Part shown: piece after piece, positions 6,346 to 61,566 of the stretch | How positions within the stretch are numbered: position 1 is the stretch's first letter | Layout: each line of letters starts with the position of its first letter | DNA from: Syntrophorhabdaceae bacterium | Lineage (GTDB): Bacteria > Desulfobacterota > Syntrophorhabdia > Syntrophorhabdales > Syntrophorhabdaceae | Direction: 5' to 3' | Assembly: GCA_963666485.2 (NCBI GenBank) | Contig: CAXXUO010000008.1 | Location: 1-64,000 of the forward strand | DNA length: 64,000 bases | Notes under the pieces: generated by a model | What the model was told of the DNA's origin: nothing | Seen by the model: the letters and a program-made list of their open reading frames with translations, nothing else | Databases searched by the model: none | Made by a program: the position numbers and the translations under genes

Positions 6346-7776
6346 ATGGCACGATACGCGATCATATTTGCCCTTATAGCAACAGTCCTTGCCGGGTGCA
6401 CGCTTATCCCCGAATATAAGCGCCCCGATGCGCCGGTGCCGGCAGCGTGGCCCACCGGCCCCGCGTATAAGGAAACGGGAAGCGACTTCAAGGACACACC
6501 TGCTGCCAATGTCAACTGGCGCGAATTTTACACGGATGAGAAGCTGCAGAAGGTCATTGAAATGGCCCTCAATAACAATCGCAACCTCAGGGTCGCAGCC
6601 CTCAATATCGACAAGATGAGGGCCGTGTACGGGATCTCTCGGCTCGTCGTGCTTCCGCTGCCGGATGCCAATGGGAGCCTGAATTATTACAGGAACCCCG
6701 CCGATATTGCCGACAGCAACGATGCCAGGAATATCCGCCTGTACAATGCGAACTTCGGCGTTACCTCATGGGAGATAGACTTTTTCGGCCGCATCCGCAG
6801 CCTGTCCGAGAGGGCGCTCCAACAATACTTTGCAACAGAGCATGCACGCAACGGCGTCCAGATCGCCCTGATCGCCGACGTGGCGAACGCCTACATGCTC
6901 CTTGCAGCCGAGCGTGACGCGCTGGAACTCGCCCGGTCGACCCTCAAGTCCCAGGAGGCATCCCGGGACATGATAAAACGCCGCTATGAGCTCGGCGCAT
7001 CGTCACAGATAGACTACGACCAGGTGACGACCAGGGTGGAAGCGGCACGGGTCGACGAGGCCCGGTTCACGAACCTCGTTGCCAACGATGAAAACACCTT
7101 GAATTTTCTTGTCGGTTCCCCCGTTCCCCCGGAGCTGCTCCCTGAAAACCTTGCCGCGATCAAGACCCCGAAAGACATCTATCCGGGCCTTTCCTCCGGC
7201 ATACTCCTCGGTAGGCCCGACATTCTGGAAGCGGAAAGCCTGCTGAAAGCGGCCAATGCGAACATAGGCGCCGCACGGGCTGCGTTCTTTCCCCGCGTCT
7301 ACCTCACGACAAATGTCGGGACCACGAGCGATGAATTGTCGGCACTGTTCAAAGCCGGCTCCCAGTCATGGAGCTTTGTGCCCCAGGTCACCGTCCCCAT
7401 ATTCAGCAACGTCATAAACTGGGCAAATTTGAAAGCGGCAAAGGCTGACCGCGAGATATTTATCGCACAATACGAGAAGGCGATACAAGCGGCGTTCAGG
7501 GAAGTTGCCGACGCGCTCGCCCGTCGCGGGACAATAATGGACCAGACGAGAGCTCAGCAGCTGCTCACCGATTCATCGCAAAAGATCCGCGATCTTTCCA
7601 TGGCACGCTACAAGAACGGGATCGACAGTTATCTCAACGTCCTCGACGCGGAGCGAAGTTACTACAGCGCCCAGCAGGGCCTCATCGCCATCCATTTTTC
7701 GCGCATGGCAAACCTGATCAATATGTACAAAGTGTTGGGTGGCGGGGGGATGCCGGAACCTGAGAAAAAACCGTAA
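6346..7776 (+). CDS. Efflux outer-membrane factor lipoprotein (OprM/NodT family)
   Basis: Lipobox LAGC, WEIDFFGRIR, RPDILEAE..LKAANANIGAARAAFFP, YKVLGGG. Confidence 0.94.
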   Translation: MARYAIIFALIATVLAGCTLIPEYKRPDAPVPAAWPTGPAYKETGSDFKDTPAANVNWREFYTDEKLQKVIEMALNNNRNLRVAALNIDKMRAVYGISRLVVLPLPDANGSLNYYRNPADIADSNDARNIRLYNANFGVTSWEIDFFGRIRSLSERALQQYFATEHARNGVQIALIADVANAYMLLAAERDALELARSTLKSQEASRDMIKRRYELGASSQIDYDQVTTRVEAARVDEARFTNLVANDENTLNFLVGSPVPPELLPENLAAIKTPKDIYPGLSSGILLGRPDILEAESLLKAANANIGAARAAFFPRVYLTTNVGTTSDELSALFKAGSQSWSFVPQVTVPIFSNVINWANLKAAKADREIFIAQYEKAIQAAFREVADALARRGTIMDQTRAQQLLTDSSQKIRDLSMARYKNGIDSYLNVLDAERSYYSAQQGLIAIHFSRMANLINMYKVLGGGGMPEPEKKP

Positions 7777-8039
7777 GGCGTAAGGCGTGAGAGCGTAAGG
7801 AGTTCCCCTTTCATCGTCATCCCCCAGAGGGGCCGTAGCGCAATTCCCCCCACTCCGTCATCCCGGCGAAAGCCGGGATCCAGTGTCTTTGCTTTTGCTT
7901 TTAGTCAATAATATTAATTATATGCGGTAGTAGACCTGTCTCAGATTAGACACGGTTTTGATCGACTATATAAAGAAGAAAAATCCTGGATTCCGGCCTC
8001 CGCCGGAATGACGGCATGGGAGAAAGGTCTTTCGCCTTA
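7772..8039. repeat. Heptamer-bounded intergenic cassette A containing a palindrome doublet
   Basis: CGTAAGG units at 7772-7800 include the OMF stop TAA. The opposite end TTCGCCTTA includes the stop of the convergent gene. Inner arms are GTCATCCCGGCGAAAGCCGGGATCCAG (7857-7883) and CTGGATTCCGGCCTCCGCCGGAATGAC (7986-8012). Confidence 0.8.
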
Positions 8040-8273
8040 TACCGTTATATTTATCCTTCCCCCCTCTTCTTCACTATCCTCACCGGCGGGCAATTCGCGG
8101 CCGTATAATTTCATCGGTTTTTCGCGTTTTTCGTCTGCCGGGGTCTCCCTGGGCTGACGCTTCTGATTTTTCTCATCCTGCCTTTTCGGGCCGACGAATT
8201 CCTTCGAGACCGACAGCTTTCTGTCGGTCGGCTGTACATTTCTGAGAAGGTTCACCGGAAAGGATTCGTCCAT
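8037..8273 (-). CDS. Small charged hypothetical protein, probably co-transcribed with cheW
   Basis: 78-aa ORF starting 15 nt after the cheW stop, with a GAGG RBS; ends GGRINITV. Confidence 0.6.
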   Translation of the reverse strand: MDESFPVNLLRNVQPTDRKLSVSKEFVGPKRQDEKNQKRQPRETPADEKREKPMKLYGRELPAGEDSEEEGGRINITV

Positions 8274-8288
8274 TGCCTCACATCGTCC

Positions 8289-8756
8289 CTAGTTCATATC
8301 TATATTTTCGATATCCTTCCGTTCCGGGGAGGAGAAGATCTTCTTGAGCTCGAGAAGGATAAGGAGTCGTTCATCGAGCTTGCCGACCCCTTCTATGTAT
8401 TCCGATTCAATTCCCGCTACCATGGACGGCGGCGGCTCGATCGTATTCTCGGGGATCCTTAAGACCTCGGATACGGAATCGACGATAAAACCGAGCACAA
8501 GGCCGTCCAGTTCCACAACGATGATGCGCGTCGACTTGTCGTACGGCTGGTCTCTGAAACCAAGGCGCTTTCTCAGGTCAACGATGGGGATGATCTTGCC
8601 CCTCAGATTGATAACGCCCTCTATGAATCCCGGTGCGTTGGGGATCTTTGTAATATTCATCATCTTGTTGATCTCCTGCACCTTCAGGATATCGACACCG
8701 AATTCTTCCGTACCAAGTTTAAAAGTGACAAGCTGCAGAATAGCGCCATCGTTCAT
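8289..8756 (-). CDS. cheW: Chemotaxis coupling protein CheW
   Basis: LQLVTFKLGTEEFGVDILKVQEI, IPNAPGFIEGVINLRGKIIPIVDLR, GFIVDSVSEV. Confidence 0.96.
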   Translation of the reverse strand: MNDGAILQLVTFKLGTEEFGVDILKVQEINKMMNITKIPNAPGFIEGVINLRGKIIPIVDLRKRLGFRDQPYDKSTRIIVVELDGLVLGFIVDSVSEVLRIPENTIEPPPSMVAGIESEYIEGVGKLDERLLILLELKKIFSSPERKDIENIDMN

Positions 8757-8777
8757 GGGTACCTCCTCTTTCCCATA

Positions 8778-8804
8778 TTGTCGGAAGAAACCCGGGATAC
8801 TTAA
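8778..8804 (-). promoter_or_regulatory. sigma28-type promoter for cheW
   Basis: Minus strand TTAA-N15-TCCGACAA, compared with the FliA consensus TAAA-N15-GCCGATAA. Confidence 0.55.
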
Positions 8805-8823
8805 ATCCCTGTGTTTATTTCCT

Positions 8824-8850
8824 TAATATTACCGGCGTTCCAGCCGATAA
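8824..8850 (+). promoter_or_regulatory. sigma28-type promoter for the EAL-HDOD gene
   Basis: TAAT-N15-GCCGATAA. Confidence 0.72.
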
Positions 8851-8904
8851 TTATAGCAGGGTGAAAACCCTTAGCTTCAATCATAATCAGCAGTCGGGCA
8901 GACA

Positions 8905-10140
8905 ATGAACGAGGACGATCCGCATAACCAGGCCCATATAGGAAGACAGCCCATCCTGAACAGGCTCAAGAAGATCTTCGGCTACGAGCTCCTTTTCCGC
9001 AGGGGTGACGTCAACGGGGCGGATGTAGCGGACAATATGCGGGCCACCGCCAGCGTCCTCGTCAACACCCTCAACAATATAGGCATATCACGCCTTATCG
9101 GGGACAAGGTCGGCTTTATCAATGTCGATGACGCAGTCCTCGAGAGCGGCATTATCGACCTTTTGCCGGCGGAAAGAACGATCCTGGAACTTCTTGAAAC
9201 GGTGGAACTGGACCAGCGGGTCTTTGACCTGTGCTGCAGGGTACACAAGAAAGGTTTCAAGTTCGCCCTCGACGACGTGATCGATCACGATGACCGGATC
9301 GAGAACATGCTCACGGTATCCTCGATCGTCAAGATAGACCTTATCGGCTGCGACAGGGAAAAGCTTCCGGAACTTGTCGGAAAATTCAAAAAACACAAGA
9401 TCAAATTGCTGGCTGAAAAGATCGAGAGTGAGGAAGAATTTGAACAGTGCCTGGGCCTTGGCTTCGATTATTTCCAGGGATATTTCTTTGCGAAGCCCTC
9501 TATCATCTCGGCTCGGAGCATTTCCCCGACACAAATGGTCCTCCTCGAACTTTCCCGCTTCCTGGCCCGGGAAGCCGAGTTCTACACTATAGAGGAACTC
9601 TTCCGCAAGAATCCCGAGCTCCACATCAAGCTCCTGCAATTCATGAATTCCGCCGCTTTTTATACGGCACACAAGATAAACTCCATCGGGCAGGCCATAT
9701 CGATGCTTGGATACCGGAACCTCCAGAAATGGGTTACCCTCCTCTTGTTCGCGGGTGAAGGTCATGATGCCAGGTCCACGCCGCTCTTTGAACGTGCGGC
9801 CATCCGGGGGCGCATCATGGAACTCATGGCAATGCGCATTACCCGTGACGTTAAAGCAGCCGACATGGCCTTCATCACCGGTGTCCTGTCCCTCATCGAT
9901 GTCCTTCTCAAGGTACCACTTGAGAGTATCGTCAAAGATTTCAACCTGTCGGACGAGATAGAGAATGCCCTCCTCAAACGCGTCGGCGTGCTAGGCAAAA
10001 TGGTAAGCGCCATCGAGAATATGGAGCAGGAGAATTACGACGAGGTAAAGAACCAGCTCGAAGGCGTCAACATTTCGCCATCAGAACTGTACGAGATGGA
10101 AAATAACGCGATAATTGAATATGAGACGGTGGACGGCTAA
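8905..10140 (+). CDS. EAL + HDOD domain c-di-GMP phosphodiesterase (YuxH/PdeH-like)
   Basis: RQPI..GYELLFR, FALDD, LAEKIE and FQGYFFAKP motifs, followed by an HDOD region (KLLQFMNSA, SIGQAISMLG, AFITGVLS). Confidence 0.9.
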   Translation: MNEDDPHNQAHIGRQPILNRLKKIFGYELLFRRGDVNGADVADNMRATASVLVNTLNNIGISRLIGDKVGFINVDDAVLESGIIDLLPAERTILELLETVELDQRVFDLCCRVHKKGFKFALDDVIDHDDRIENMLTVSSIVKIDLIGCDREKLPELVGKFKKHKIKLLAEKIESEEEFEQCLGLGFDYFQGYFFAKPSIISARSISPTQMVLLELSRFLAREAEFYTIEELFRKNPELHIKLLQFMNSAAFYTAHKINSIGQAISMLGYRNLQKWVTLLLFAGEGHDARSTPLFERAAIRGRIMELMAMRITRDVKAADMAFITGVLSLIDVLLKVPLESIVKDFNLSDEIENALLKRVGVLGKMVSAIENMEQENYDEVKNQLEGVNISPSELYEMENNAIIEYETVDG

Positions 10141-10511
10141 CGGCGTACGGCTGACGGAAAAAACATAACTTCTCCCGATCTTCAAGAAAAATGCACTGGT
10201 CTGGATAAGCTGTTGACAATTACAGACTCAGATAAATGAAGAGTCACGGTCTTCCGGTTAAGATTGTTTCAGTGCAAGACACTCGAACCGCAGAGGGATA
10301 TCAACTGCCACTCATTTATTGTCAAACGTTCCGGAAACATTTGAGGGACGTCCTTAAGAAAGTAAGGAACTCGTCAAACAACTAAACGGACCACCCTGTC
10401 GTTATTATCTCCCGGACCGGGTGATTTCAAGTTACTTACTTTCTTAAGGACGTCCCCTTTTCGCCTTTTGCCTTTCGCCGTTAGCCGTACGCCGTACGCC
10501 GTTTGCCGTTA
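10133..10511. repeat. Heptamer-bounded intergenic cassette B
   Basis: Left array ACGGCTA/ACGGCGT/ACGGCTG/ACGGAAA includes the EAL stop. Right array on the minus strand, TAA-CGGCAAA-CGGCGTA-CGGCGTA-CGGCTAA-CGGCGAA-AGGCAAA-AGGCGAA, starts at the cheA stop. Confidence 0.78.
10345..10456. mobile_element. 112-bp MITE/REP-like element with 27-bp inverted ends
   Basis: GGGACGTCCTTAAGAAAGTAAGGAACT (10345-10371) matches the reverse complement of 10430-10456 with one mismatch; the core is 58 nt and non-coding. Confidence 0.65.
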
Positions 10512-12326
10512 TTCATTCACCACCTGATGCATCTTCCTGTTCATGCTGTAGTCGAGGATTATCGACGGAATGTCGAGGATCAGTATGACCTTGCCGTCAC
10601 CGCGGATGGTTGCCCCGCTTATCCCCTTTATGTCTTTCAGGAATTCTCCGAGCGGCTTGATAACCACCTCTTCCTGGCCTATGACGGAGTGCACCTTGAT
10701 GCCGATCGTTTTCTCGCCGATGTTGCATATCACGAGGTAACCGCCATCGTCGCCGCCATTGAAGAAGAAGGCCTTTCTCAGGTCTACGACCGGGATGACC
10801 GTGTTCCTCAGGACAAGGACCTCATTCTTGTCCACCGTCTTGATGAGACCTTCCCGTATCTTCACGAGCTCGGTAACGGTGTTCAGCGGTATTGCAAAGA
10901 TCTCCTTTGATACCTTCACGATGAGGGCCCGCATAATAGCGAGGGTGAGGGGGAGCTTAATGGTAAGCTTTGTCCATTTACCTTCTTCGGAATCAATGTG
11001 GGCCTGCCCGTTCATCTTTTCGATATTGGTGCGTACCACATCCATCCCGACGCCCCGCCCGGAGACCTTACTGAGCTTCTGGGCAGTGCTCAGTCCCGGT
11101 ATGAACACGAGGTTCATCGCCTCTTTCGGGGAGAGCGTCGCCAGTTCGGCTTCCGACATGAGCCCTTTTTCCCTGACCTTGTCCTTCACTGCCTGTATGT
11201 TGATGCCCTTGCCGTCATCGAAGATCTCTATGATGACGTGGTTCCCTTCGTTATAGGCCCGGATGGACAGGGTACCCTTCGGACGCTTGCCGGCGGCTGC
11301 ACGGTTATCGGGGGTCTCGATGCCATGGTCCACGGAATTGCGAATGATATGAATGAGCGGGTCGTGAAGCGCTTCGATGAGGGAGCGGTCAAGCTCGGTC
11401 TCTTCGCCCTCCACCTTCAGTTCGATGTCCTTCTTGAACTCGGAACACAGGTCGCGGACCATCCTCGGTATCTTGTTGAACACCTTGCTGATCGGCACGA
11501 GCCGCGCACGCATGACGGACAGCTGGAGCTCATTCGTTATGACCTCTATGTAGTTCGTCACGTCCGTCAGGTTGTCAAAGACCGTCTCCGTCTCCTCGCC
11601 CTTTCTTGCCAGGCTGTTCACGAGAATGAGCCTGTTCTTGCCGAGAACAAGCTCGCCCACGAGGTTCATGAGGTCGTCGAGCTTCTTGACATCGATCCTG
11701 ATGCTCTGCTCTTCGGCCTTTTGCGCCTTCTGCTTGACGAGGACGCGGTTGAGCTGGCCCTCGGTGACCAGCTGCTCCTCAACCACTATTTCACCAAGCT
11801 TCTTGTCTTTTTCTACCTCCTGCTTCTTGAGCGCATCTTCGAGTTCCGGCCGGGTGATCATATTCTCTTCGATCATGATCTCGCCGATCTTTTTCGTTTC
11901 GGGGGGAGGTGCGGCAGCTTTTTTTGCCGGGTCGAGCAGGTCCGCCAGCTTCACGATGACCTCGGACGCTTCGCGAGCTTCGGCGCCGGTATCACGGATA
12001 TCGTCGATCATGGCTTTCATCAGGTCAAACGATTCGAGGAGAATGTCCGCCACCGCCTGGTCCGTTGCCATTTCTCCTTTCCGGATAACACCCAGGACGT
12101 CCTCCGCCTTGTGCGCGAGTTGCGACAGCGTGTTGAACCCGAGAAAGCTCGACGTTCCCTTGATCGTGTGAACGGCCCGGAAGATACTGTTCACGACCTC
12201 CTCGTCCTGGCTCTGCTCGATCACGACAATGTCCTGTATGACATTATCCATGAGCTCACCCGATTCCACTATGAACTCATCGATTATCTCCTTCATCTCA
12301 TCATGCTGCATAGCCTGATCATCCAT
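10509..12326 (-). CDS. cheA: Chemotaxis histidine kinase CheA (Hpt, MshEN-like tandem motif, dimerisation, HATPase, CheW)
   Basis: IFRAVHTIKG (Hpt), IRIDVKKLDDLMNLVGELV, HIIRNSVDHGIE, DDGKGI, SGRGVGMDVV, LPLTLAI, GATIRGDG. Confidence 0.96.
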   Translation of the reverse strand: MDDQAMQHDEMKEIIDEFIVESGELMDNVIQDIVVIEQSQDEEVVNSIFRAVHTIKGTSSFLGFNTLSQLAHKAEDVLGVIRKGEMATDQAVADILLESFDLMKAMIDDIRDTGAEAREASEVIVKLADLLDPAKKAAAPPPETKKIGEIMIEENMITRPELEDALKKQEVEKDKKLGEIVVEEQLVTEGQLNRVLVKQKAQKAEEQSIRIDVKKLDDLMNLVGELVLGKNRLILVNSLARKGEETETVFDNLTDVTNYIEVITNELQLSVMRARLVPISKVFNKIPRMVRDLCSEFKKDIELKVEGEETELDRSLIEALHDPLIHIIRNSVDHGIETPDNRAAAGKRPKGTLSIRAYNEGNHVIIEIFDDGKGINIQAVKDKVREKGLMSEAELATLSPKEAMNLVFIPGLSTAQKLSKVSGRGVGMDVVRTNIEKMNGQAHIDSEEGKWTKLTIKLPLTLAIMRALIVKVSKEIFAIPLNTVTELVKIREGLIKTVDKNEVLVLRNTVIPVVDLRKAFFFNGGDDGGYLVICNIGEKTIGIKVHSVIGQEEVVIKPLGEFLKDIKGISGATIRGDGKVILILDIPSIILDYSMNRKMHQVVNE

Positions 12327-12702
12327 GGATCTCCTCCCCGTCCTGTAAAAGGCTCTCTACCTTGTACAGCAAGAAATTTGGTTGTACCGGTTTATTCAGG
12401 AACATGTTGACGCCCGCATCGAATGCGTCCTTTTTCAGCTTATCGTCCTTTGTCGTGGTGAGCATTATGATGGGGGTATCCATGTAATAATAGTTGTCGC
12501 GAAGGTTCCTTACGAATTCGATGCCGTCCATGTTGGGCATGTTGAGATCGACAATGACGAGATCGACCTGGACGTGGCTCAGTTTTTCCATGGCATCGAT
12601 GCCATCCTCCGCCTCGGCAATGATGTAGTTCTTTTTCTTCAAAATATATGCCAGTAGTTTCCTGATGGTGGCCGAGTCGTCAACAACCAAAATTGTCTTC
12701 AT
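12319..12702 (-). CDS. cheY: CheY-like single-domain response regulator
   Basis: LVVDDS, VDLNMPNMDG, MLTT and KP motifs; lies between cheR and cheA. Confidence 0.85.
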   Translation of the reverse strand: MKTILVVDDSATIRKLLAYILKKKNYIIAEAEDGIDAMEKLSHVQVDLVIVDLNMPNMDGIEFVRNLRDNYYYMDTPIIMLTTTKDDKLKKDAFDAGVNMFLNKPVQPNFLLYKVESLLQDGEEIHG

Positions 12703-12705
12703 AGA

Positions 12706-26959: not shown

Positions 26960-26975
26960 AGCAATTAATATGCCA
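26960..26975 (-). promoter_or_regulatory. sigma54 -24/-12 promoter for the fliL operon
   Basis: Minus strand TGGCAT-ATTAA-TTGCT. Confidence 0.82.
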
Positions 26976-27040: not shown

Positions 27041-27054
27041 GTCAGCAAAATGAC
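27041..27054. promoter_or_regulatory. Candidate FleQ-type enhancer site
   Basis: GTCAGCAAAATGAC (GTCA-N6-TGAC), about 70 nt upstream of the -24 element. Confidence 0.45.
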
Positions 27055-27390
27055 GGTAAGGCAGGTGATAGGCGATAGGCAAGGGGCGAGGGGTTAAAAA
27101 TCGATCAGTAACAAAAAAGAAGATTAAGTGGAATAATAAAAAACAATACCTTGGATTCCGGCTTTCGCGGGAATGACCGATGGAGAATTGGATTCCTGTG
27201 CCCGGAGGGTACCGGTCCCTGCATGACAATCAGCTATATACAGATTTAGTTGCAAAAAATCCGACCAAACCGAAAGTGACTGTCATAAATGATCGGAGCA
27301 AACACAGGGGGGCCGGATCACGGCCCCCCTGATTATCGTTCATTCTTTCCTATGGCCTATTGCCCATTACCCATTACCTCTTACCTCTTA
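27054..27390. repeat. Heptamer-bounded intergenic cassette C with two single palindrome arms
   Basis: Left purine-rich 7-mers at 27054-27093. Right CCTATGG-CCTATTG-CCCATTA-CCCATTA-CCTCTTA-CCTCTTA (27349-27390) spans the flgE stop. Arms are TGGATTCCGGCTTTCGCGGGAATGAC (27152-27177) and a decayed copy at about 27188-27227. Confidence 0.7.
27305..27331 (-). terminator. Strong hairpin after flgE, likely terminator
   Basis: Perfect 11-bp stem CAGGGGGGCCG-GATCA-CGGCCCCCCTG; TGTTT follows on the minus strand. Confidence 0.65.
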
Positions 27391-31752: not shown

Positions 31753-31789
31753 GACAAATCACCGGGTGATGGACAATACAACACTCGCC

Positions 31790-31891
31790 GTCATCCCGGG
31801 CTTGACCCGGGATCCAGTCAACCGGTTTATCCAAAGATAGAAAGAAAAGACGCTGGATTCCGGCACCCGGAGGGTACCCGGCCGGAATGAC
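31790..31891. repeat. Palindrome doublet between fliI and fliJ (no heptamer flanks)
   Basis: GTCATCCCGGGCTTGACCCGGGATCCAG ... AAAGACGCTGGATTCCGGCACCCGGAGGGTACCCGGCCGGAATGAC. Confidence 0.82.
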
Positions 31892-39961: not shown

Positions 39962-39973
39962 GCCGGGATAAGT

Positions 39974-39989
39974 TGCAAGAAAAGTGCCA
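39974..39989 (-). promoter_or_regulatory. sigma54 -24/-12 promoter for the fleS-fleR-flgB operon
   Basis: Minus strand TGGCAC-TTTTC-TTGCA, a consensus match. Confidence 0.88.
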
Positions 39990-39993
39990 TGAA

Positions 39994-40371
39994 AAGGCGT
40001 AAGGCGTAAGGCGTAAGGCGTAAGGCGTTACAGAACTTCGTAAAAACAATTAGTTATATAAATAATTCTCAAATGGAGCTTACGCGAAATCCCCCCGTCG
40101 TCATCCCGGCGCTTGTCGCCGGGATCCAGCGTCTTTGCTTTTTGTTTCCTTCAAGGGTGAGACCATATCCGCCAGACAAATCCGCCACTTCTATCTCGAA
40201 ATTACGGGCAGATTTAGCCAGTTACAGAATAAAGACGCTGGATTCCGGCAAGCCGGAATGACGGTATTTTCTCTGTCAGGTGTGTTTGGAAATATCCAGT
40301 CCGAGCAGCGTGTTCTTTAGAATTTTTGACAGGTCGAGAAACGCCTTACGCCTTACGCCTTACGCCTTACG
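39994..40371. repeat. Heptamer-bounded intergenic cassette D with a palindrome doublet
   Basis: (AAGGCGT)x5 at 39994-40028 and (ACGCCTT)x4 at 40341-40368 are exact reverse-complement units. Inner doublet 40100-40262 is GTCATCCCGGCGCTTGTCGCCGGGATCCAGCGTCTTT ... AAAGACGCTGGATTCCGGCAAGCCGGAATGAC. Confidence 0.9.
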
Positions 40372-48206: not shown

Positions 48207-48420
48207 GTTCAACCGTTCAACAGTTCAACCGTTCGACGTGAGTACGGCCGGGGCCTTGGCGGGAATCCACCTATTCAAGTCGTCATTCCGGCTTGCCGGA
48301 ATCCAGCGTCTTTGCTTTGTTAAGTGCCAGGCTTATTATAGGGACAAAAAGACACTGGATTTCGCCGCAAAAGCCGGCGGAATGACGACGCACGCCTTTA
48401 GCGTTGAACGGTTTAACGGT
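48207..48420. repeat. Octamer-bounded intergenic cassette E with a palindrome doublet
   Basis: GTTCAACC/GTTCAACA/GTTCAACC/GTTCGACG (48207-48238) faces CGTTGAAC/GGTTTAAC/GGT (48402-48420). Doublet at 48282-48386. Confidence 0.8.
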
Positions 48421-49386: not shown

Positions 49387-49394
49387 TATAGGGT

Positions 49395-49479
49395 GCCGAA
49401 GTGGCGGAATTGGCAGACGCGCTAGATTCAGGGTCTAGTAGGCAATTTGCCTGTGTGGGTTCAAGTCCCGTCTTCGGCA
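49395..49479 (+). tRNA. tRNA-Leu (anticodon CAG), CCA not encoded
   Basis: Acceptor stem GCCGAAG/CTTCGGC plus discriminator A; D arm GGCGGAATTGGCAGACGC; anticodon arm CTAGA-TTCAGGG-TCTAG; long variable arm; T loop TTCAAGT with two G-U pairs in the T stem. Confidence 0.95.
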
Positions 49480-49588
49480 TTATTTTTTTGTCAAAAATCC
49501 TCAAGAGCTCCCCGCCCGAAACCCTTGAAACGCTTCATTGTATATTATCTAAAATGAATTTTGTATAAAAATTACGGCCTGAGAAAAT

Positions 49589-49792
49589 CGTAAGGCGTAA
49601 GGCGTTGAAAACCCGCTATTTCAATACAAAGAAACATTCTTCCGTGAAATAATAGAAAGACGCTGGATTCCGGCGCAAAAGCCGCCGGAATGACGGCAGA
49701 CTTTAAAGACAGAAACTAGGTCTAATAACGTTTCTTCCCGGGCCGAGAGAATTTCTTTTCCGTTAGCCGTTAGCCGTTAGCCGTTAGCCGTT
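49589..49792. repeat. Heptamer-bounded intergenic cassette F with a single palindrome arm
   Basis: CGTAAGG x2 plus CGTTGAA (49589-49609); (CCGTTAG)x4 plus CCGTT (49760-49792) next to the sppA stop; arm AAAGACGCTGGATTCCGGCGCAAAAGCCGCCGGAATGAC (49656-49694). Confidence 0.8.
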
Positions 49793-49796
49793 CTTC

Positions 49797-50651
49797 TTAC
49801 GGTTTGTACTCGTACTTGAACGGCGCTGCCTGCTCCCGTGCGAACATGTCCTGCAGGGCGGAGGAGAGAAGCCATTTCAGGGGGGCAAAAGGCCTCTTGC
49901 CGTATACGAGGGTGGGTTTTCCCTTGATGCCGAGCGTCGCCTTCATGGCATCGACTGCATCGTAGAATGTTCCTATGTTGTCGATAAGGCCGGCATCCTT
50001 CGCCTGAAGCCCCGTGTATATCCTGCCGTCCGCCAGCTCCCTGACCTTTTCGATCTTCATTTTCCTTCCGGAGGCGACATCCTTGATAAACTGCCCATGA
50101 ATGCTGTCGATGATATCCTGCAGGTATTTCCGCTCGGCATCGGTCATCCTGCGGAAGGGGTTCCCGACGTCTTTCATCGATCCCGCCTTGATCGTGTTCG
50201 CCTGGACGCCTATCTTCTTCATCAGGTCCTCGACCACGGTCTGCTGCATGATGACGCCGATGGACCCCGTTATCGTCGAGGGGTTGGCGTAGAGCCTCTC
50301 ACCGACCGCCGCTATATAGTACCCTCCCGAGGCGCATACCGATCCCATCGAGACGTAGACCTTCTTTCTTTCTCTCAGCTTTTTGAGTTCGGTGGCTGCC
50401 TCCTGGGTCGGCCCGACGGCGCCGCCTGGTGAATTGATGCGGACGATAACACCCTTAACACTGTCATCTTCCTTGAGCCGGACGATATCGGCCATGACAT
50501 CCTTCATGTCCGTTATCGTCCCCTCGACCTCTACGACCCCGATCTTCGAGCCGCTGTCCCCGAATATGCCTGATAACATAATGGCAAAGAAAATGACCGC
50601 TATCACGATACAAACGACGAGCAGGATCTTCCTGCCGATATTACCTGCCAT
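49797..50651 (-). CDS. sppA: Signal peptide peptidase SppA (36K type)
   Basis: N-terminal TM, RINSPGG, SMGSVCASGGYYIA, TGSIGVI, ADGRIYTG. Confidence 0.95.
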   Translation of the reverse strand: MAGNIGRKILLVVCIVIAVIFFAIMLSGIFGDSGSKIGVVEVEGTITDMKDVMADIVRLKEDDSVKGVIVRINSPGGAVGPTQEAATELKKLRERKKVYVSMGSVCASGGYYIAAVGERLYANPSTITGSIGVIMQQTVVEDLMKKIGVQANTIKAGSMKDVGNPFRRMTDAERKYLQDIIDSIHGQFIKDVASGRKMKIEKVRELADGRIYTGLQAKDAGLIDNIGTFYDAVDAMKATLGIKGKPTLVYGKRPFAPLKWLLSSALQDMFAREQAAPFKYEYKP

Positions 50652-54898: not shown

Positions 54899-55339
54899 CT
54901 ATATCCCCGTTGAACCGAAGCCTCCCTCACCGCGGGTCGTGTCCGCCAGGTCCGGTACATGCCGGAAATCGACCCGGGCAAGCCTCTTGAAAACCATCTG
55001 GGCGATGCGGTCGCCCTTATTGATCGTAAACGCTTCGCTGCCGAGGTTGATGAGTATCACCTTGACCTCGCCCCTGTAATCGGAATCGATCGTCCCCGGC
55101 GTGTTGAGGACCGTCACCCCGTGCTTTACCGCTATGCCGCTGCGGGGCCTGACCTCCGCCTCGTACCCTTCCGGTATCCCGATAAAAAGGCCGGTCGGGA
55201 CAAGCGCCCTCTGAAGGGGTTGAAGGACGAGGGGTTCATCGACGAGTGCGCACAGGTCGACGCCCGACGCATGGTCCGTTGCATACACGGGTATCTTCGC
55301 CCCGTCACGGGTTTTGATAGAAACGTCTATTCTTTCCAT
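54899..55339 (-). CDS. dut: dUTP diphosphatase
   Basis: SGVDL, RPRSG, NTPGTIDSDYRGE, RIAQ, RGEGGFGSTG. Confidence 0.97.
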   Translation of the reverse strand: MERIDVSIKTRDGAKIPVYATDHASGVDLCALVDEPLVLQPLQRALVPTGLFIGIPEGYEAEVRPRSGIAVKHGVTVLNTPGTIDSDYRGEVKVILINLGSEAFTINKGDRIAQMVFKRLARVDFRHVPDLADTTRGEGGFGSTGI

Positions 55340-56586
55340 ATGGTTTCGATCTTCGTCCGGTCGACATTGCCGAGTATCGTCAGCGAGATCTCGTTCGGGT
55401 CATTGAATATCTCCCGCGCAATGGTTGCCACGTCCGATCTCTTGATGCTGTCGATCTCGTGCAGCGTCTCCTTGAGGGGGATATAGCTTCCGAAATATAT
55501 CTCGTTCTTCGCGAGCCGGCCCATCCGTGTTTCCGATCCCTCGAGCGCGATGAAGAGGTTCCCTTTTATGTGTTCCTTGGAGAAGGAAAGCTCGGCATCC
55601 GTGATACCGTCATTGCGCACGCGAACGATCTCTTCCCTGATGAGGCCGAGCACCTCGTTCAGGGATTCCTGCGACGTCGACGTCGAGATCCCGAATGTGC
55701 CGCAATCGTGGTAGCAATTCACGTACGAATATATGTTGTACACAAGGCCGCGCTTCTCCCTGATCTCCTGGAAGAGGTGCGAGCTCATGGAGCCCCCCAT
55801 GACCGCGTTGAGCACATACAGTATGTACCTGCGCCGGTCCACCTGGCTGACACCATCCGTGCCTATGCACATGTAGATATGCTCGAGGTCTTTTTCGTAG
55901 ATGTCGATACCGATCGTCGGCTCCGGGGCAAGGAGTTTCCTCCTGTGCGAGCTGCCGTTCGAGATCCCTGAAAAATAGCGGGTTATATTCTCGACACACG
56001 CCTCGTGATTGACCCTGCCGCTGATGGTGATGATGGTGTTCTCCGCCCCATAGTGCTCTTTGAAATAATCCCGTATCGCGCCCGTCTCGAGCGACCCGAC
56101 GGTCTTGTCCGTGCCGAGTATCGGCATCCCGAGCGCGTGCCCCTTGTAGTACGAGGCGTTGAACATATCGTAGATATATTCCTCGGGGCTGTCCTCCACC
56201 ATTTTTATTTCCTGGTTTATGACGTAGCGCTCTTTCTCGATGTCGTCCTCGCTGAAGAGCGACTTGAGATGCATGTCCGACATGATGTCGAGTGCGATGT
56301 CGAGATCTTTGCGGAGGACGCGCACGTAAAGACAGGTGTACTCCCTGCCCGTAAAGGCGTTGATAGAACCGCCTATGGCATCGATCTCGCGCGCGATGTC
56401 ATAGGCTGTACGCCCCTGCGTACCTTTGAAAAGCATGTGTTCGATAAAATGGCAGATACCGTTGTTTGCGGGGCCTTCGTACCGGCTGCCCGCCTTCCAC
56501 CAGATGCCGATGGACACGGTGGAATAATACGATATGGATTCTGTGACGACTGTTATACCATTATCGAGGACAGTCTTCTTATACAT
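55327..56586 (-). CDS. M16 family zinc peptidase
   Basis: HFIEHMLFKGT (HxxEH), NAFTGRE, GGSMSSHLFQEIREKRGLVY; usual position after pnp. Confidence 0.94.
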   Translation of the reverse strand: MYKKTVLDNGITVVTESISYYSTVSIGIWWKAGSRYEGPANNGICHFIEHMLFKGTQGRTAYDIAREIDAIGGSINAFTGREYTCLYVRVLRKDLDIALDIMSDMHLKSLFSEDDIEKERYVINQEIKMVEDSPEEYIYDMFNASYYKGHALGMPILGTDKTVGSLETGAIRDYFKEHYGAENTIITISGRVNHEACVENITRYFSGISNGSSHRRKLLAPEPTIGIDIYEKDLEHIYMCIGTDGVSQVDRRRYILYVLNAVMGGSMSSHLFQEIREKRGLVYNIYSYVNCYHDCGTFGISTSTSQESLNEVLGLIREEIVRVRNDGITDAELSFSKEHIKGNLFIALEGSETRMGRLAKNEIYFGSYIPLKETLHEIDSIKRSDVATIAREIFNDPNEISLTILGNVDRTKIETIWKE

Positions 56587-56590
56587 CTAA

Positions 56591-58669
56591 TTATCGCTGG
56601 CCTTCCCTGAGGACAGCCTTGCGTGACAGTTTGACCCTGCCGTTATCTTCGACACCGATAACCTTGACCCTGATGTCATCGCCTTCCTTTACAACATCGG
56701 AAGCCTTTTTCACGAACTTGTCGTCAAGCTGGCTTACATGGCAGAAACCGTCGAGGTTCGGGCCGAGCTCGATGATCGCGCCCGCGTCGAGAACACGCCG
56801 CACCTTGCCGTCGTAGATAGCCCCGACCTCGACCTCTTTTATGATGGATTTGACTATCTCGATAGCAGCGTTTGCGGATTCCTCGTCAACTGAAACGATG
56901 TTGACCATCCCGGAATCATCGATATCGATCTTCACGCCCGTTCTCTCGATAATGCTCCTGATGACCTTTCCGCCCGGGCCGATGACTTCCCGGATCTTGT
57001 CGGGTTTTATCATCATCGTGTATATCCTCGGGGCGTAGGGCGAAAGGGTTTCGCGGGGCTTTTCGATCGTAGACGTCATGATATCGAGGATATGCCCGAC
57101 ACCCTGCTGGCCCTGGACGACAGCCTTCGACATCGTATCTTTCGAGATGCCCTTGATCTTGATATCCATCTGGATGGCCGTTATGCCTTCGCGGGTGCCG
57201 GCTATCTTGAAATCCATATCGCCGAGGTGGTCCTCATCGCCTAAGATATCGCTCAGGATGATCTCCCGGTCGCCTTCTTTCACGAGCCCCATGGCTATAC
57301 CGGCAACCGGCTCTTTGATCGGGACCCCGGCATCCATGAGGGAGAGACAGCCGCCGCATACCGTCGCCATCGAAGATGAGCCATTGGACTCGAGGATCTC
57401 GGACACGATCCGTATCGTGTAGGGGAACGCCTCTCTTTCGGGAAGGATGGGGGTCAATGCGCGTTCTGCCAGGTTGCCATGTCCTATCTCGCGCCGTGTC
57501 GGCCCGCGCAGCATCGATGCTTCACCCACCGAGAAGGGTGTAAAATTATAATGGAGGAGGAAGGTCTTATACGTTTCCCCTTCGTGGAGCGACTCTATCT
57601 TCTGCTCGTCATCGGATGTCCCGAAGGTGGTTATGGCCAGCGACTGTGTTTCGCCCCGTGTAAAAACGGCGGAACCGTGCGTGCGGGGAAGCACCCCGAC
57701 AAGGCATGAAATGGGCCGTATCTGATCGCTCGCCCGGCCGTCAATTCGTTTTCCTGTAGACAAAAGCTGCTCACGCATGAGGTTGCTCGTCACGTCCTCA
57801 TATGCCTTGGCAATGGACGGCGCCTCTTCTTCAGGATATTTCTCGAGCAATTCCTTTAATATCCGGTCTTGCTTTGCGTACCGTTCGAGCTTGGCTTTTA
57901 CTGCGAAGCTGTCGGTCAGGTCTTTTTCAACATGACCTCTGACCTCTTTCTTCTTTTCTTCGAGGTCTTCCTGGACCGGCACCTGCCGCTTGCCTTTTCC
58001 AATTTTTGCGCACAACTGCTCCTGCATCTCGATAAGCGGCATCATTGCCTGATGGCCGAACTCGATCGCCTCTATGAGGTCCATGCCTTTGACGAAGTGT
58101 GCTTCGCCTTCAACCATGATGATCGCGTCACGTGTTCCGGTGACGACGATGTCGATATCGCTGTCGGCCATTTGGGGAAAGGTCGGGTTTGCCACCAGCA
58201 CCCCGTTTATTCTGCCCACCTTGACGCCGGCGAACGGCCCTTCAAAAGGAATATCGGACACGGATACCGCGCACGATGCCCCGACAAGGCTCAGGATGCC
58301 CGGATCGTTGTCCTCGTCCGCTGAAAGTACAGTTGCAATAACCTGGGTCTCAAACCGCCAGCCCTTGGGAAACAGGGGGCGCAATGGTCTATCGATCAAA
58401 CGCGATGTCAGAATCTCCCGTGTCGTCGGCCGTCCTTCCCGTTTAAAAAAACCTCCCGGGAATTTGCCCGCGGCATATGACATTTCCTGGTAGTTGACCG
58501 TCAAAGGCAAAAAATCCTTGTCCTTCGGGTTCTTTTCGGAAACAACCGTGACAAGCACCACGGTGTCGCCATAACGGGCAATGACACTCCCGTCGGCCTG
58601 TTTGGCGAGGCCCCCTGTCGTTAAACTTAACGGACGACCCGCGAATTCGATAGATATCTTCTCTTCCAT
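56591..58669 (-). CDS. pnp: Polyribonucleotide nucleotidyltransferase (PNPase)
   Basis: FFKREGRP, SRLIDRPLRPLF, FTRGETQ, RREIGHG, SNGSSSMA, DMDFK, KH and S1 domains. Confidence 0.98.
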   Translation of the reverse strand: MEEKISIEFAGRPLSLTTGGLAKQADGSVIARYGDTVVLVTVVSEKNPKDKDFLPLTVNYQEMSYAAGKFPGGFFKREGRPTTREILTSRLIDRPLRPLFPKGWRFETQVIATVLSADEDNDPGILSLVGASCAVSVSDIPFEGPFAGVKVGRINGVLVANPTFPQMADSDIDIVVTGTRDAIIMVEGEAHFVKGMDLIEAIEFGHQAMMPLIEMQEQLCAKIGKGKRQVPVQEDLEEKKKEVRGHVEKDLTDSFAVKAKLERYAKQDRILKELLEKYPEEEAPSIAKAYEDVTSNLMREQLLSTGKRIDGRASDQIRPISCLVGVLPRTHGSAVFTRGETQSLAITTFGTSDDEQKIESLHEGETYKTFLLHYNFTPFSVGEASMLRGPTRREIGHGNLAERALTPILPEREAFPYTIRIVSEILESNGSSSMATVCGGCLSLMDAGVPIKEPVAGIAMGLVKEGDREIILSDILGDEDHLGDMDFKIAGTREGITAIQMDIKIKGISKDTMSKAVVQGQQGVGHILDIMTSTIEKPRETLSPYAPRIYTMMIKPDKIREVIGPGGKVIRSIIERTGVKIDIDDSGMVNIVSVDEESANAAIEIVKSIIKEVEVGAIYDGKVRRVLDAGAIIELGPNLDGFCHVSQLDDKFVKKASDVVKEGDDIRVKVIGVEDNGRVKLSRKAVLREGQR

Positions 58670-58687
58670 ATTCTTCCTATTAATCCT

Positions 58688-58957
58688 TTATTTTCTGAGA
58701 CCGAGCTTTTCTACCACTTTCTTGTACCTGTCGACGTTCTTGTCCTTCAGGTAATTGAGCAGTCTTCTCCTGCTTCCCACGAGGACGAGAAGGCCGCGCC
58801 GCGAGTTGTGGTCTTTCGAAAATCTTTTGAAATGTTCGGTCAGGGATTTGATCCTTTCCGTGAGAAGTGCGATCTGCACTTCCGGGGAACCGGTGTCACT
58901 CTCGTGGGTTTTGAAATCCTCGATGATTGACTTTTTCCGCTGGGTGTCGAGTGGCAT
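58688..58957 (-). CDS. rpsO: 30S ribosomal protein S15
   Basis: [28 protein letters not shown]. Confidence 0.98.
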
Positions 58958-58973
58958 GATGTATATTCCTCCT

Positions 58974-59873
58974 TTAATGATTGATCAATCTTTTTATCTT
59001 AATTGTCTTTGAAGCAAGGTCAGCGACACCCACACCAATAAGCATGCCCTGCTTATTGAAAAGGCGCGCATCTTCCCCGTGCTTCCAGTCCTTGGAATTT
59101 CCTGCGATTGGTACGGGCATCCCGTGTTTCAGAAACTTCTCGAGTGCTGTATCCACCACCATCCCCCGCACAGAACCCAGGATGTTTTCCAATGGTAATA
59201 GATAGTTTAACAGGTCTTGCTCCATTTTGAAATAATCAATATCAGTTCCCATGTTTTCCGTAAAATCACCGTGCTTGGTCCGCTTGAGGGTATAGAGGGT
59301 CGCCCCGCAGCCAAGCTTCTCTCCCAGGTCGCTTGCAAGGGCCCGTATATACGTTCCCTTCGAGCATGTGACCTCAACGTCCAGGTACGGATGCGTGTAG
59401 TCGAGAAGGGTAATGTCGAAGATCTCCACCTCTTTTACCGGCGACTCGACGGGCACGCCGCTGCGCGCCCACTTGTAGAGAGGTTTCCTGTTGACCTTTT
59501 TCGATGAATACGCCGGTATTTTTTGCGTTATCCTGCCGAGGTACGATGCAAGGGAGTCTTCGATCACCTGCCGGTCAAAAGGGTCCGTCGGGGTCTCCGT
59601 CACGACCTTCCCCTCGATGTCCTGTGTTTCGGTGGTCACGCCGAGAAGGAATTTTGCCCGGTACTGCTTCTCGACGTTCTCGAGGTACGGGATGAGCTTG
59701 ACGCCTTCGTCGAGGGCAACCGGCAATATTCCGGTCGCGTTCCGGTCAAGGGTCCCGATGTACCCTATTTTCTTGAACTTATGGATCCTCTTCAGGCGTC
59801 TGATGACGTCATAGGACGACATCCCGGTTTTTTTATCTATTATCAAAAATCCATTCATGGTGCTGATATCCAT
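58974..59873 (-). CDS. truB: tRNA pseudouridine(55) synthase
   Basis: [37 protein letters not shown]. Confidence 0.93.
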
Positions 59874-59893
59874 TTCCTCCGATTCCCCGTGAT

Positions 59894-60838
59894 CTATTGC
59901 CCAACGGGCAACGCATCGAGCAGTTTCCTGCGGGCCTCTTCAAGGGTCCCCTCGATCCGGCACCCTGCTGCATTGCGGTGCCCGCCGCCGCCAAACCTGT
60001 TGCAGACCGCGGCGACGTCCACGATGCCTTTTCCCCGCATGCTGATCTTATACTGGTCCTTCTTGAGTTCGCGCATGAGCACCGCCACCTCGATCCCGCG
60101 GATCTCCTTGATAATTTCAACGAAACCATCCACAAACTCGCTGCTGGTCCCGGTCTTTTCGAACATATCGCCCGTCACATGGACCATCGCCACGGTCCCG
60201 TTGTAGGTCGCAAGGGTGCACAGGACCTCTCCTAAGAGGAGGAACCGCTCCTTGGGATGGTTCTCGTACACCATCATCGCGATCCGGGACGGGTTCGTCC
60301 CTGCCTTCACCATCGCCTCGCATGTCCTGTACGCGCTCAACGACGTGTTTTCGTACCTGAGGGAACCCGTGTCCGTGAACACGGCTGTATATATGTTGTC
60401 CGCGATGTTCTGATCGACTTCCACCCCGAGGTACTTGAGCAGGCGGTATATGATCTCGCCGGTCGACGAGGCCGTGTTGTCCACGTAATTCACTGTACCG
60501 AACTGATCGTTCGTATCATGGTGGTCGATATTGACGAGCGGGGCCTTGAGGGCGATAGCGTCGTGCGCCTTGCCGATCCGGAAAAGGCTTCCGCAGTCGA
60601 GGACGAAGATCGCATCGAACGCGCCGTGCGGCACCGTATGCGTGATCCGGGGAGCGGGAAGGAACTCGTACCGGTACGGCACCTGGTCGTTGAAATAAAC
60701 GGTCGCTTTTTTTCCGAGCGCCTTCAGCGCAAAAGCGAAGGCAAAGGCCGAGCCGATCGCATCCCCGTCGGGATCGATATGGGTGGTCACGAGAAAATCC
60801 TGACCTTCCATGATCAGTTGTTTAATCTTTCTTTTCAT
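59894..60838 (-). CDS. DHH/DHHA1 phosphoesterase (NrnA-like nanoRNase/pAp phosphatase)
   Basis: THIDPDGDAIGS, LDCG, NIDHH, TDTGS, GGGGHRNAAG. Confidence 0.92.
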   Translation of the reverse strand: MKRKIKQLIMEGQDFLVTTHIDPDGDAIGSAFAFAFALKALGKKATVYFNDQVPYRYEFLPAPRITHTVPHGAFDAIFVLDCGSLFRIGKAHDAIALKAPLVNIDHHDTNDQFGTVNYVDNTASSTGEIIYRLLKYLGVEVDQNIADNIYTAVFTDTGSLRYENTSLSAYRTCEAMVKAGTNPSRIAMMVYENHPKERFLLLGEVLCTLATYNGTVAMVHVTGDMFEKTGTSSEFVDGFVEIIKEIRGIEVAVLMRELKKDQYKISMRGKGIVDVAAVCNRFGGGGHRNAAGCRIEGTLEEARRKLLDALPVGQ

Positions 60839-61172
60839 CGGCATCTTTCTTAAAGATCTCTTCTATCCTTTGCACCCTCTCCATCGTGTCATCGAGGAGA
60901 AAAGTCAGCTCCGGTATGTACCTCAGCGTGACCCTCTTGCCGAGCAGGAACTTTATATAACCCTTCGAGCGCCCGAGCGCCTCGAGGGTGTCCTTCTGCG
61001 CTTCATCATCCCCGTATATCGAGACGTACACCTTGCCCGTTTTCAGGTCCTCGCTCATCTTCACTTCGACAACCGTTACAAAGCCAAGCCCGGGGTCCTG
61101 CAGTTCGCGCTGTATAATAAGCGATATCTCTTCCCTGAGCAGGTCCTGGACGCGCAGGCGGCGATATTTCAT
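60822..61172 (-). CDS. rbfA: Ribosome-binding factor A
   Basis: DPGLGFVTVVEVKMSEDL, LRYIPELTF; in the infB operon. Confidence 0.95.
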   Translation of the reverse strand: MKYRRLRVQDLLREEISLIIQRELQDPGLGFVTVVEVKMSEDLKTGKVYVSIYGDDEAQKDTLEALGRSKGYIKFLLGKRVTLRYIPELTFLLDDTMERVQRIEEIFKKDADEKKD

Positions 61173-61468
61173 ATCTCGTCCCCGATAACGATGATCTCGC
61201 TCGACGTATCGATGATCTCACCGAGGTAGAGCGATTCCATATATTCATGCACGTTCTCGATAACCTTGCTCACGTGGTCCTGCCTGACGCCTGCCACCGC
61301 GAAGCCGATCCGGGCGCGCTGCCACAGGTTTGACTGATCGACCTCGATCATGGAAATATTAAACTTCGCCCGGGTCTTTTCAATGACTTTCCTCAGCATC
61401 TGCCGTTTGTCTTTGAGAGAATGATTCTCAGGAAAGAAAATATCGACGCGGGATATGCCAACAACCAT
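61169..61468 (-). CDS. DUF503 (YlxP-like) protein
   Basis: HSLKDKR..KFNIS..EVD..LWQRA; typical position between infB and rbfA. Confidence 0.88.
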   Translation of the reverse strand: MVVGISRVDIFFPENHSLKDKRQMLRKVIEKTRAKFNISMIEVDQSNLWQRARIGFAVAGVRQDHVSKVIENVHEYMESLYLGEIIDTSSEIIVIGDEI

Positions 61469-61488
61469 AAAGGCCGACCATCATGTGT

Positions 61489-61566
61489 CCGTAAGGCGTA
61501 AAGCGTAAGGCGCAAGGCGTATGATGCTTTCCAAACTCCCTACGCCTGACGCCTGACGCCTTACGG
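61489..61566. repeat. Empty heptamer cassette G (arrays only)
   Basis: CGTAAGG-CGTAAAG-CGTAAGG-CGCAAGG-CGTA, a 19-nt spacer, then TACG-CCTGACG-CCTGACG-CCTTACG. Confidence 0.8.

Follow-up and report, generated by a model that had tools for sequence, protein, structure and literature searches.

The stretch of DNA analysed here, referred to as the window, is the 64,000 nucleotides of C8:1-64000 in the genome of a Syntrophorhabdaceae bacterium (G000; 3.77 Mb, 99% complete). Seven of its intergenic spacers begin and end with short tandem arrays of 7- or 8-nucleotide units, which lie on opposite strands, face inward and are called arms below; the DNA between the two arms of such a cassette is called its cargo. 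The flanking genes are ordinary and include those for an RND efflux outer-membrane factor, an EAL-domain protein, cheA, fliL, flgE and a histidine kinase, together with a sigma-54 activator, an HD-GYP-type regulator, ribF, sppA and infB. A preliminary description had taken the spacers for a non-autonomous insertion or exchange system that targets gene 3′ ends, carries swappable cargo and is served by an enzyme encoded elsewhere, with long RNA duplexes as the alternative. Mirror-image heptamer arrays are real and occur far above chance in G000, and a pair of them probably forms the two ends of an element whose complete form carries a gene of the four-helix-bundle family TIGR02436/PF05635 between the same arms.

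Paired heptamer arrays across the genome

An array detector, run in one version at each period from 4 to 12 across G000, gave 595 arrays at period 7 and 9-58 at each of the other periods (4-6 and 8-12). Counted without orientation seeds, neighbouring arrays 30-100 bp apart were inverted in 81 of 110 cases and direct in 12, and those more than 5 kb apart were inverted in 16 and direct in 13 of 176. Orientation was then assigned by family, with seeds partly taken from inverted neighbour pairs, which resulted in 574 merged arms; neighbours less than 300 bp apart comprised 167 inward, 21 same-direction and no outward pairs. The two ends belong to the same family in 149 of 171 pairs, compared with 43 expected and a maximum of 60 in 2000 shuffles. 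Nine of the 574 arms lie within called genes. Among stop-side arms, 291 of 368 overlap a stop codon or lie within 12 nt of one (91 expected from uniform placement in the same spacers), and 51 of 73 convergent cassettes touch both stops; the gene calls come from a hexamer model that missed both four-helix-bundle genes of G000, so that arm-to-gene distances carry some error. The inverted pairing and the closeness to stops noted in the preliminary description extend to the whole genome. Arms are found in 116 of 257 convergent, 203 of 1041 tandem and 38 of 397 divergent spacers.

The typical arm consists of an A-tract, four units and another A-tract. In two families with GTTC cores, exactly four cores are present in 117 of 177 and 90 of 128 arms, with flanking A-tracts and free variable positions. 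The commonest units (GTTCAAG, GTTCCAC and ACGGCTA) have no GGG run, and some GGG is seen in the TRGG family only. Some arrays are expanded to 20-50 units; very long arms of 28-50 units at C2:470309, C2:532195 and C1:407391, some of which alternate two units, could be real slippage products or assembly artefacts. At C9:14326-14684 and C9:187030-187223 an arm and part of the cargo are tandemly duplicated, starting inside the upstream gene end.

The functions of genes next to arms have nothing in common. Gene 3′ ends beside armed sites are unalignable slightly more often than others (27% of 83 vs 17% of 215, p=0.02). A further 195 arms face start codons or promoters; for promoter-facing arms, identity is 0.66 just outside the arm and 0.51 just inside (n=21). 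The proposal that stop codons are targeted specifically found no support, since arms also abut conserved sigma-54 and other promoter sequence and the insertion at infB landed within coding sequence and brought its own stop, and stop codons are therefore probably not the target.

Four-helix-bundle genes between the arms

G000 has two TIGR02436/PF05635 genes above the curated family cut-off, which lie outside the window at C4:146912-147229 and C2:636159-636482. One lies between ACGGCTA arms and the other between GTTCAAG arms, which are among the largest arm families of the genome. TIGR02436 matches are present in all 19 genus genomes (G000 and the 18 others searched) and, some of them weak, in 5 of 12 genomes of other families. 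Among 41 loci examined, 33 match the two G000 proteins, and a script placed arrays on both sides of 18 of these, on one side of 7 and on neither side of 8; degenerate arms were recognised by eye at L035, L049, L057 and L063. A direct metagenome protein scan gave 11 loci. On trees of 22 and 29 four-helix-bundle proteins, arm type tracks protein group: ACGGCTA/AAGGCTA arms coincide with a group of three rows, GGGTYAT arms with one of five, and GTT/CTT-type arms with one of nine, a single row of which is without arms. Paralogues within G000, G001, G007, G012 and G016 bear different arms, and the two genomes richest in ACGGCTA arrays, G000 and G007, are the two with that gene-arm pair. By three unit-specific pattern counts, which are blind to other units, these arm families are nearly confined to the genus.

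The preliminary description had linked similar heptamers to small four-helix-bundle or GxxExxY genes of other anaerobes. Four-helix-bundle genes are indeed heptamer-armed, and the GxxExxY gene of G000 (C1:1409219-1409566) was seen by eye within nested inverted repeats of 9-10-nt period, not heptamers. An upstream motif, AAAAGTAATAT, is common to this gene and several four-helix-bundle genes. More four-helix-bundle genes or fragments, as candidates for the other arm families of G000, were sought with PF05635 (E<=1) and with a custom profile in six frames, and just the two were found.

The gene between matched arms encodes an all-helical bundle rather than an HUH fold. Its structural model (pLDDT 97) matches the five-chain structures 2GSC (TM 0.93) and 2RLD and, more weakly, the Avd structure 4DWL (TM 0.81), and a protein atlas search returned only the same family. 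Two acidic residues, E44 and E67 in the numbering of the aligned stretch, are invariant among these proteins. By analogy with 2GSC and 2RLD and with the title of Lin et al. (2006), we infer that the armed proteins would assemble from five subunits.

Empty, filled and swapped sites in relatives

The preliminary description asked whether orthologous junctions vary, and among relatives they are empty, filled or occupied by another arm family. The junction between infB and the 99-amino-acid open reading frame after it, which has no NCBIfam match and which we take to be ylxP from gene order, was compared at 30 loci, the window included; G013 gave no locus. The spacer is empty (3-9 nt) at 8 of 17 genus and all 12 other-family loci, and an armed cassette stands at the same point as in the window at 5 of the 17. 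With the window these make six armed loci, which form one clade (SH-aLRT 100) and thus probably go back to one insertion. It lies within the last infB codons, not beyond the stop, so that the old gene end is still visible downstream and a new stop upstream was supplied by the insert. A 3-4-nt TGA(T) overlap there may be a target duplication; in L114/L115 the signs of such a duplication are ambiguous. The units of the six loci are CGTAAGG, AGTAAAC, CGTAAAT, CGTAAAA or CGTCAGT, and both arms change together. An unrelated 130-nt insert with inverted ends occupies the same junction in L007, L013, L015 and L016, whose genomes are not one clade on the infB tree.

Other window junctions vary as well. 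After the sppA stop, arms or remnants of differing units were seen by eye in most genus genomes. The spacer between the sigma-54 activator and the kinase has AAGGCGT arms in the window and GTTCTAC arms in G003 and G011, and this swap keeps the same borders, the sigma-54 promoter and the stop. Between fliL and flgE a terminator-like hairpin is retained between arms of different families: a hairpin similar to that of flgE stands between other-family arms in G003 and same-family arms in G002. One further case of this kind was found elsewhere. Near the EAL/cheA junction, insertion-sequence ends of the GGGTACATAGGTAAC type lie beside or inside armed spacers in G003 C3 and G002 C4.

Borders of these changes are sharp. 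The metagenome loci L114 and L115 are 97-98% identical, and four of the five large differences in their 21 kb are cassettes: a swap between unrelated families, a swap of related 9-mers, a shortened copy and a clean empty/filled pair. No change runs more than about 30 nt past the arms, and this speaks against an origin in long tracts recombined from distant donors. In a relative from run X5, with genes about 90-97% identical, one contig bridges infB-ylxP with 102 nt in place of 93, and the long aligned pieces terminate at the edges of the three cassettes compared. Contigs of runs X1 and X3, which may come from the source sample, break at the repeats, and the raw reads of run X6 give the stretch hardly any coverage.

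The widest comparison was between G000 and G011 (1.28 Mb out of roughly 2.6 Mb of G011; 825 junctions). Both genomes are armed at 68 junctions, a lower bound because the patterns used overlook degenerate arms and merge some families, while G000 alone is armed at 29 and G011 alone at 14; chance would give 22 doubly armed junctions among 357 long spacers. The arm family differs at 36 of the 68, and at the compared junctions the GTTCAA type has 24 sites in G000 and 2 in G011.

Contents of the cassettes

Cargo has a median length of 70 nt and 44% G+C, with an A-rich left and a T-rich right end. It is mostly unrelated AT-rich DNA, later-arriving repeats or retained host terminators, which lends no support to the swappable module proposed before. 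Of 17 orthologous pairs of cargo, 3 show clear similarity. No non-self match in G000 was found for 110 of 153 cargos, and 11 cargos have some match within a called gene. An origin of cargo as pieces of host genes was considered and rejected, the best non-self matches of the remaining 43 being other repeats.

One whole gene-less cassette is present twice, at C1:905764 and C1:943756, with 91.5% identity over 71 nt, cargo included, and unrelated flanks. A left arm with about 55 nt is common to four loci. The 112-bp inverted-repeat element noticed earlier proved to be part of a longer non-coding one of about 270-300 bp, 11 near-full copies of which are 90-98% identical and end in a 27-nt inverted-repeat pair (e.g. 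C1:1098244-1098577). All 11 lie within 600 bp of a heptamer arm, and some of their right ends are tandemly duplicated. Palindromic cargo fits the SRM pattern of Ssn nucleases, found in 42 of 357 armed and 33 of 1338 unarmed spacers. Tagged palindromic hairpins (GTAG/CGTC or GGGGWSAS) occur only as cargo, the arms being tandem arrays. At window 31789-31891 a pair of Ssn-related hairpins lies without heptamer arms, and the corresponding G011 junction is a GTTCTAC-armed cassette.

The seven spacers of the window

Arms were found on inspection at both ends of all seven spacers, as first described, except that four of the fourteen are degenerate and visible by eye only (8027-8039 right, of about one unit; 10133 left; 27055 left; 48402-48420 right). 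Tandem Repeats Finder (TRF) at score 30, applied to these spacers, detected 10 of the 14, and the stricter genome scan recovers 9 (Table 1). Five arms contain a flanking stop codon, exactly those named before: the outer-membrane factor (7774-7776), the 8037 open reading frame, the EAL gene (10138-10140), cheA (10509-10511) and flgE (27381-27383). Five further ends, one more than had been counted, lie 1-12 nt from a stop (fleQ-like, HD-GYP, ribF, sppA and infB), and the remaining four face promoters or start codons. Sigma-54 promoters have the consensus GG-N10-GC. Left and right arms are of unequal unit type at 49589/49760. The outer end CCTTACGGTCTTT, reported for two cassettes, is present at 40365 and 61559; it has just four copies in G000 and is thus no general terminus.

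Table 1. Arms and associated features of the seven window spacers (window positions; TRF, Tandem Repeats Finder)
Feature	Position	Strand	Basis
Left arm, CGTAAGG type, 4 units; holds stop of outer-membrane efflux factor	7772-7800	+	sequence, TRF
Ssn-related (SRM/CGTC-type) hairpin in cargo; inverted partner ends near 8012	7856-7883	+	SRM pattern of PMC11893778
Right arm, degenerate, about one unit; holds stop of 8037-8273 open reading frame	8027-8039	-	by eye; missed by TRF
Left arm, ACGGCTA type, degenerate; holds stop of EAL-domain gene	10133-10157	+	sequence
Separate repeated element, about 270-300 bp	10192-10460	+	genome copy search
27-nt inverted repeats of the 270-300 bp element	10345-10371, 10430-10456		
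Right arm, ACGGCTA/AAGGCGA type; holds cheA stop	10456-10511	-	sequence, TRF
Sigma-54-type promoter of fliL (GG-N10-GC), conserved in relatives outside the arm	26961-26975	-	
Left arm, TRGGCNA type, degenerate; abuts conserved GTCA-N6-TGAC motif (27041-27054)	27055-27093	+	
Terminator-like hairpin of flgE	27307-27329	-	
Right arm, TRGGYNA/TAAGAGG type; holds flgE stop	27349-27390	-	sequence, TRF
Sigma-54-type promoter of histidine kinase gene; conserved left cassette boundary in all relatives seen	39973-39989	-	
Left arm, AAGGCGT x5	39994-40028	+	TRF
Inverted pair of Ssn-related hairpins, in cargo	40099-40262	.	
Right arm, AAGGCGT x4.4; 9 nt from stop of fleQ-like sigma-54 activator	40341-40371	-	TRF
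Left arm, 8-mer GTTCAACC x3.5; 12 nt past stop of HD-GYP response regulator	48207-48234	+	TRF
Right arm, 8-mer type, two units; adjoins ribF stop	48402-48420	-	by eye
Left arm, CGTAAGG x2.4; abuts conserved promoter-like sequence upstream of ribF	49589-49605	+	TRF
Right arm, ACGGCTA x4.7; outer CCGTAAG remnant holds sppA stop	49760-49802	-	TRF
Left arm of infB-ylxP cassette, CGTAAGG x4.6	61489-61521	+	TRF
Right arm of infB-ylxP cassette with A-rich leader and insertion-supplied new infB stop	61542-61577	-	TRF

Two other features of the window are a tRNA-Leu(CAG) gene at 49394-49480, on the strand opposite to the surrounding sppA-ribF genes and kept in five relatives, and an ordinary RND multidrug efflux operon at 1790-7776 (permease and outer-membrane factor by NCBIfam).

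Proposed mechanism and alternatives

On balance, the arrays are probably part of a selfish element, made up of a protein and its repeats, which writes itself over old sites by binding and catalysis that we infer. It would resemble REPINs, gene-less repeat pairs that spread across intergenic DNA. The non-autonomous insertion or exchange system of the preliminary description is in essence upheld here by empty and filled alleles, by the joint replacement of arms and contents and by the duplicated gene-less cassette. In the scheme proposed, the four-helix-bundle protein would assemble into a ring of five subunits on the pattern of its solved relatives, with one unit read per subunit, and the ring would bring the two arms together, after which a host repair or recombination activity, or an accessory nuclease, would cut and rejoin the DNA. 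Gene-less copies would multiply by taking the place of older ones at sites already occupied, and each new protein variant would launch a wave of its own arm type over old sites. Repeated replacement would strip dispensable DNA up to an edge kept by selection, a stop codon or promoter, so that closeness to stop codons would be a by-product of where replacement stops. Other small repeats may then find a safe place to insert in the interior of a cassette.

Several results weigh against this scheme. G000 has two four-helix-bundle genes and at least five arm families, so that past genes must be assumed lost, and the commonest unit of G011, GTTCTAC, is unlike the remnant at its single four-helix-bundle gene. 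In G017 the gene has AAGGCTA-like arms, yet the genome has no match to the ACGGCTA/AAGGCTA pattern; L043 and L054 have no arms by eye, and support in the protein trees is mostly modest, with kin sharing labels. Structure comparison found a fold unlike known nucleases or recombinases. Nor was a catalytic partner found, although the transposases of G000 were not systematically searched for these ends, and the same negative holds for the enzyme encoded elsewhere of the first proposal. Short cargo contains no four-helix-bundle fragments, the upstream motif common to the four-helix-bundle genes is present in the gene-bearing cassette only, and no common target duplication or terminal motif emerged at the compared sites. 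No detected inward partner lies within 600 bp of 216 of the 574 arms. Finally, the arm family is the same at 32 of the 68 doubly armed G000-G011 junctions against 13 expected, which makes many sites old, and no RVT_1 (PF00078) reverse transcriptase was found in the 99%-complete G000. The last result also weakens the idea that a telomerase- or DGR-like (diversity-generating retroelement) reverse transcriptase writes the arms; divergent enzymes would escape the search.

Long RNA duplexes offer a different account of the paired arms, which would then be selected to end, protect or cut transcripts as two-way terminators or RNase III-type stems, and RNase III is known to remove rRNA intervening sequences. 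This account seems unlikely. The preponderance of arms in convergent over divergent spacers is in its favour, as are T-rich runs after the right arm in 87 of 135 pairs and the presence of PF05635 family members in 23S rRNA intervening sequences (PMC10053308), while the strong folding of cassettes (z -7.4 and -9.9) is what any inverted pair must show. Two tests of the idea gave no support: mismatches in the presumed transcripts of 73 tandem pairs are G-U in 38 and A-C in 58 cases, opposite to prediction, and U-runs after the stem have no sense bias (34 of 91 sense vs 29 of 91). Furthermore, a left arm is barely closer to its own right arm than to the others of its family (mean percentile 0.59, n=127), and close relatives have either nothing or an entirely different sequence at these sites. 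Some effect of the arms on transcripts is likely, though apparently a secondary one. Replacement also bears on the idea, proposed for Geobacter metallireducens (PMC2700814), that such arrays are sites kept by the host for a chromosome-organising or global regulatory protein. A fixed four-unit anatomy with free positions does resemble a protein site, and the sites are common to species far above chance and adjoin promoters. Host-kept sites nevertheless appear improbable, given that unit type switches wholesale between strains 97-98% identical, that arm type tracks patchily distributed four-helix-bundle genes and that the neighbouring genes are without common function.

Still less probable are two further explanations. 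Polymerase slippage with hairpin template switching could copy arm onto arm with no part for an element protein, a process discussed for heptamers by Rehm et al. (2015, PMC4692102) and compatible with the arrays of 20-50 units and with the small steps by which infB-ylxP units differ. However, most arms consist of exactly four mixed units, paired arms are not mirror copies beyond a weak signal, a small set of units is seen again and again, at hundreds of loci, and matches four-helix-bundle flanks, and unrelated families replace one another at fixed borders, so that slippage is a poor candidate. Hardly more can be said for the strict first version, in which stop codons are the recognition site of an enzyme that swaps modules of cargo while the arms stay fixed. 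The stop-side distances and the convergent cassettes touching both stops fit it, and contents do vary between strains, but it is at odds with the arms that look towards start codons or promoters and border on conserved promoter motifs, and arms are replaced together with contents, which are homologous in few orthologous pairs and belong partly to independent repeat families.

Comparison with known repeats and significance

Abundant intergenic heptamer arrays of patchy distribution are familiar from the STRR repeats of cyanobacteria. The comparisons below rest on parts of the papers cited. Xanthomonas GGGAATC and Nostoc GGGGA(C/T)T repeats (Rehm et al., 2015, PMC4692102) are, like those of G000, intergenic heptamers of mostly four units at sites common to species with sequence variation, and they form 70 and 75 convergent inverted pairs, lie close to stop codons and are rare between divergent genes. 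They were read as G-quadruplex formers with role unassigned, whereas the main units here lack a GGG run, and in the parts considered that paper names no linked protein or family swapping, unlike the reading given here. Paired octamer/heptamer sites of Geobacter metallireducens (Aklujkar et al., 2009, PMC2700814) have 3-5 tandem units of 7-9 nt and likewise form opposite-strand pairs at variable distance, with several families per genome; insertion sequences lie beside them, and a sister species has a different sequence at the same proBA spacer. They were proposed as global regulator or IHF/HU sites, and the parts considered connect them neither with four-helix-bundle genes nor with mobility. 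G000 shares with this Xanthomonas/Geobacter-type class the period-7 excess, intergenic position, about four units and inverted pairs; the G-quadruplex-forming GGG tracts, a mark of the repeats of Rehm et al. alone, are lacking from its commonest units. Beggiatoaceae TAACTGA repeats (MacGregor, 2015, PMC4679880) are similarly abundant, patchy intergenic heptamers of 2-6 units; in contrast, they are direct repeats upstream of start codons, with one inverted case, for which a translational role was proposed.

Mobile systems provide the other comparison. REP/RAYT and TIRtron/TIRYT systems (Di Nocera et al., 2013, PMC3733652) also have a small gene between its own inverted repeats and many gene-less pairs, but their repeats are palindromic hairpins with HUH tyrosine transposases, in place of tandem arrays with an all-helical bundle. 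The architecture works much as it does there and in NTS-ssnA-NTS systems, yet the arms and their gene lack the features that define REP/REPIN-RAYT or TIRtron elements. Ssn nucleases with NTS/SRM repeats (Chenal et al., 2025, PMC11893778) share the repeat-gene-repeat order, protein-specific variants and intergenic spread; they are GIY-YIG nucleases acting on one hairpin, a separate family that here sits inside the arms. As in miniature inverted-repeat transposable elements, there are inverted ends and empty and filled alleles; conserved internal sequence among copies is lacking, apart from a few duplicates. The armed G000 genes are members of the 23S rRNA intervening-sequence family PF05635/TIGR02436 (2GSC, 2RLD) and have the same fold. 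In PMC10053308, whose relevant parts call the family's function uncharacterised, its relative Avd belongs to diversity-generating retroelements; the genes here are not in rRNA genes, and no reverse transcriptase was found in G000. Paired arrays had been published for Xanthomonas and Geobacter. No literature link between heptamer repeats and TIGR02436/PF05635 was found, in a search outside which lay the PMC2700814 and PMC4692102 supplements (neighbouring genes).

A bolder version of the selfish element, possible at best and rather doubtful, makes the ring the working part of an undescribed mobile-element class, which would read four-unit arrays, pair arms and drive intergenic replacement, possibly via E44/E67 or a host enzyme. 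With every variant, hundreds of sites would be converted to its own unit, and the class would account for heptamers across many bacteria and connect them with the ancestry of Avd. Heptamer repeats abound in a number of bacterial groups, with no consensus on where they come from or what they do (PMC4692102, PMC2700814, PMC4679880), and PF05635 proteins have solved structures but, in the parts considered, no assigned function. G000 supplies named protein-repeat pairs, unit variants and empty, filled and swapped sites, with which both questions become testable, and a selfish element would give these long-unexplained bacterial heptamers a testable origin. If so, about a fifth of the longer spacers of G000 (357 of 1695) would be undergoing rewriting, which would alter protein C-termini, terminators and the surroundings of promoters.

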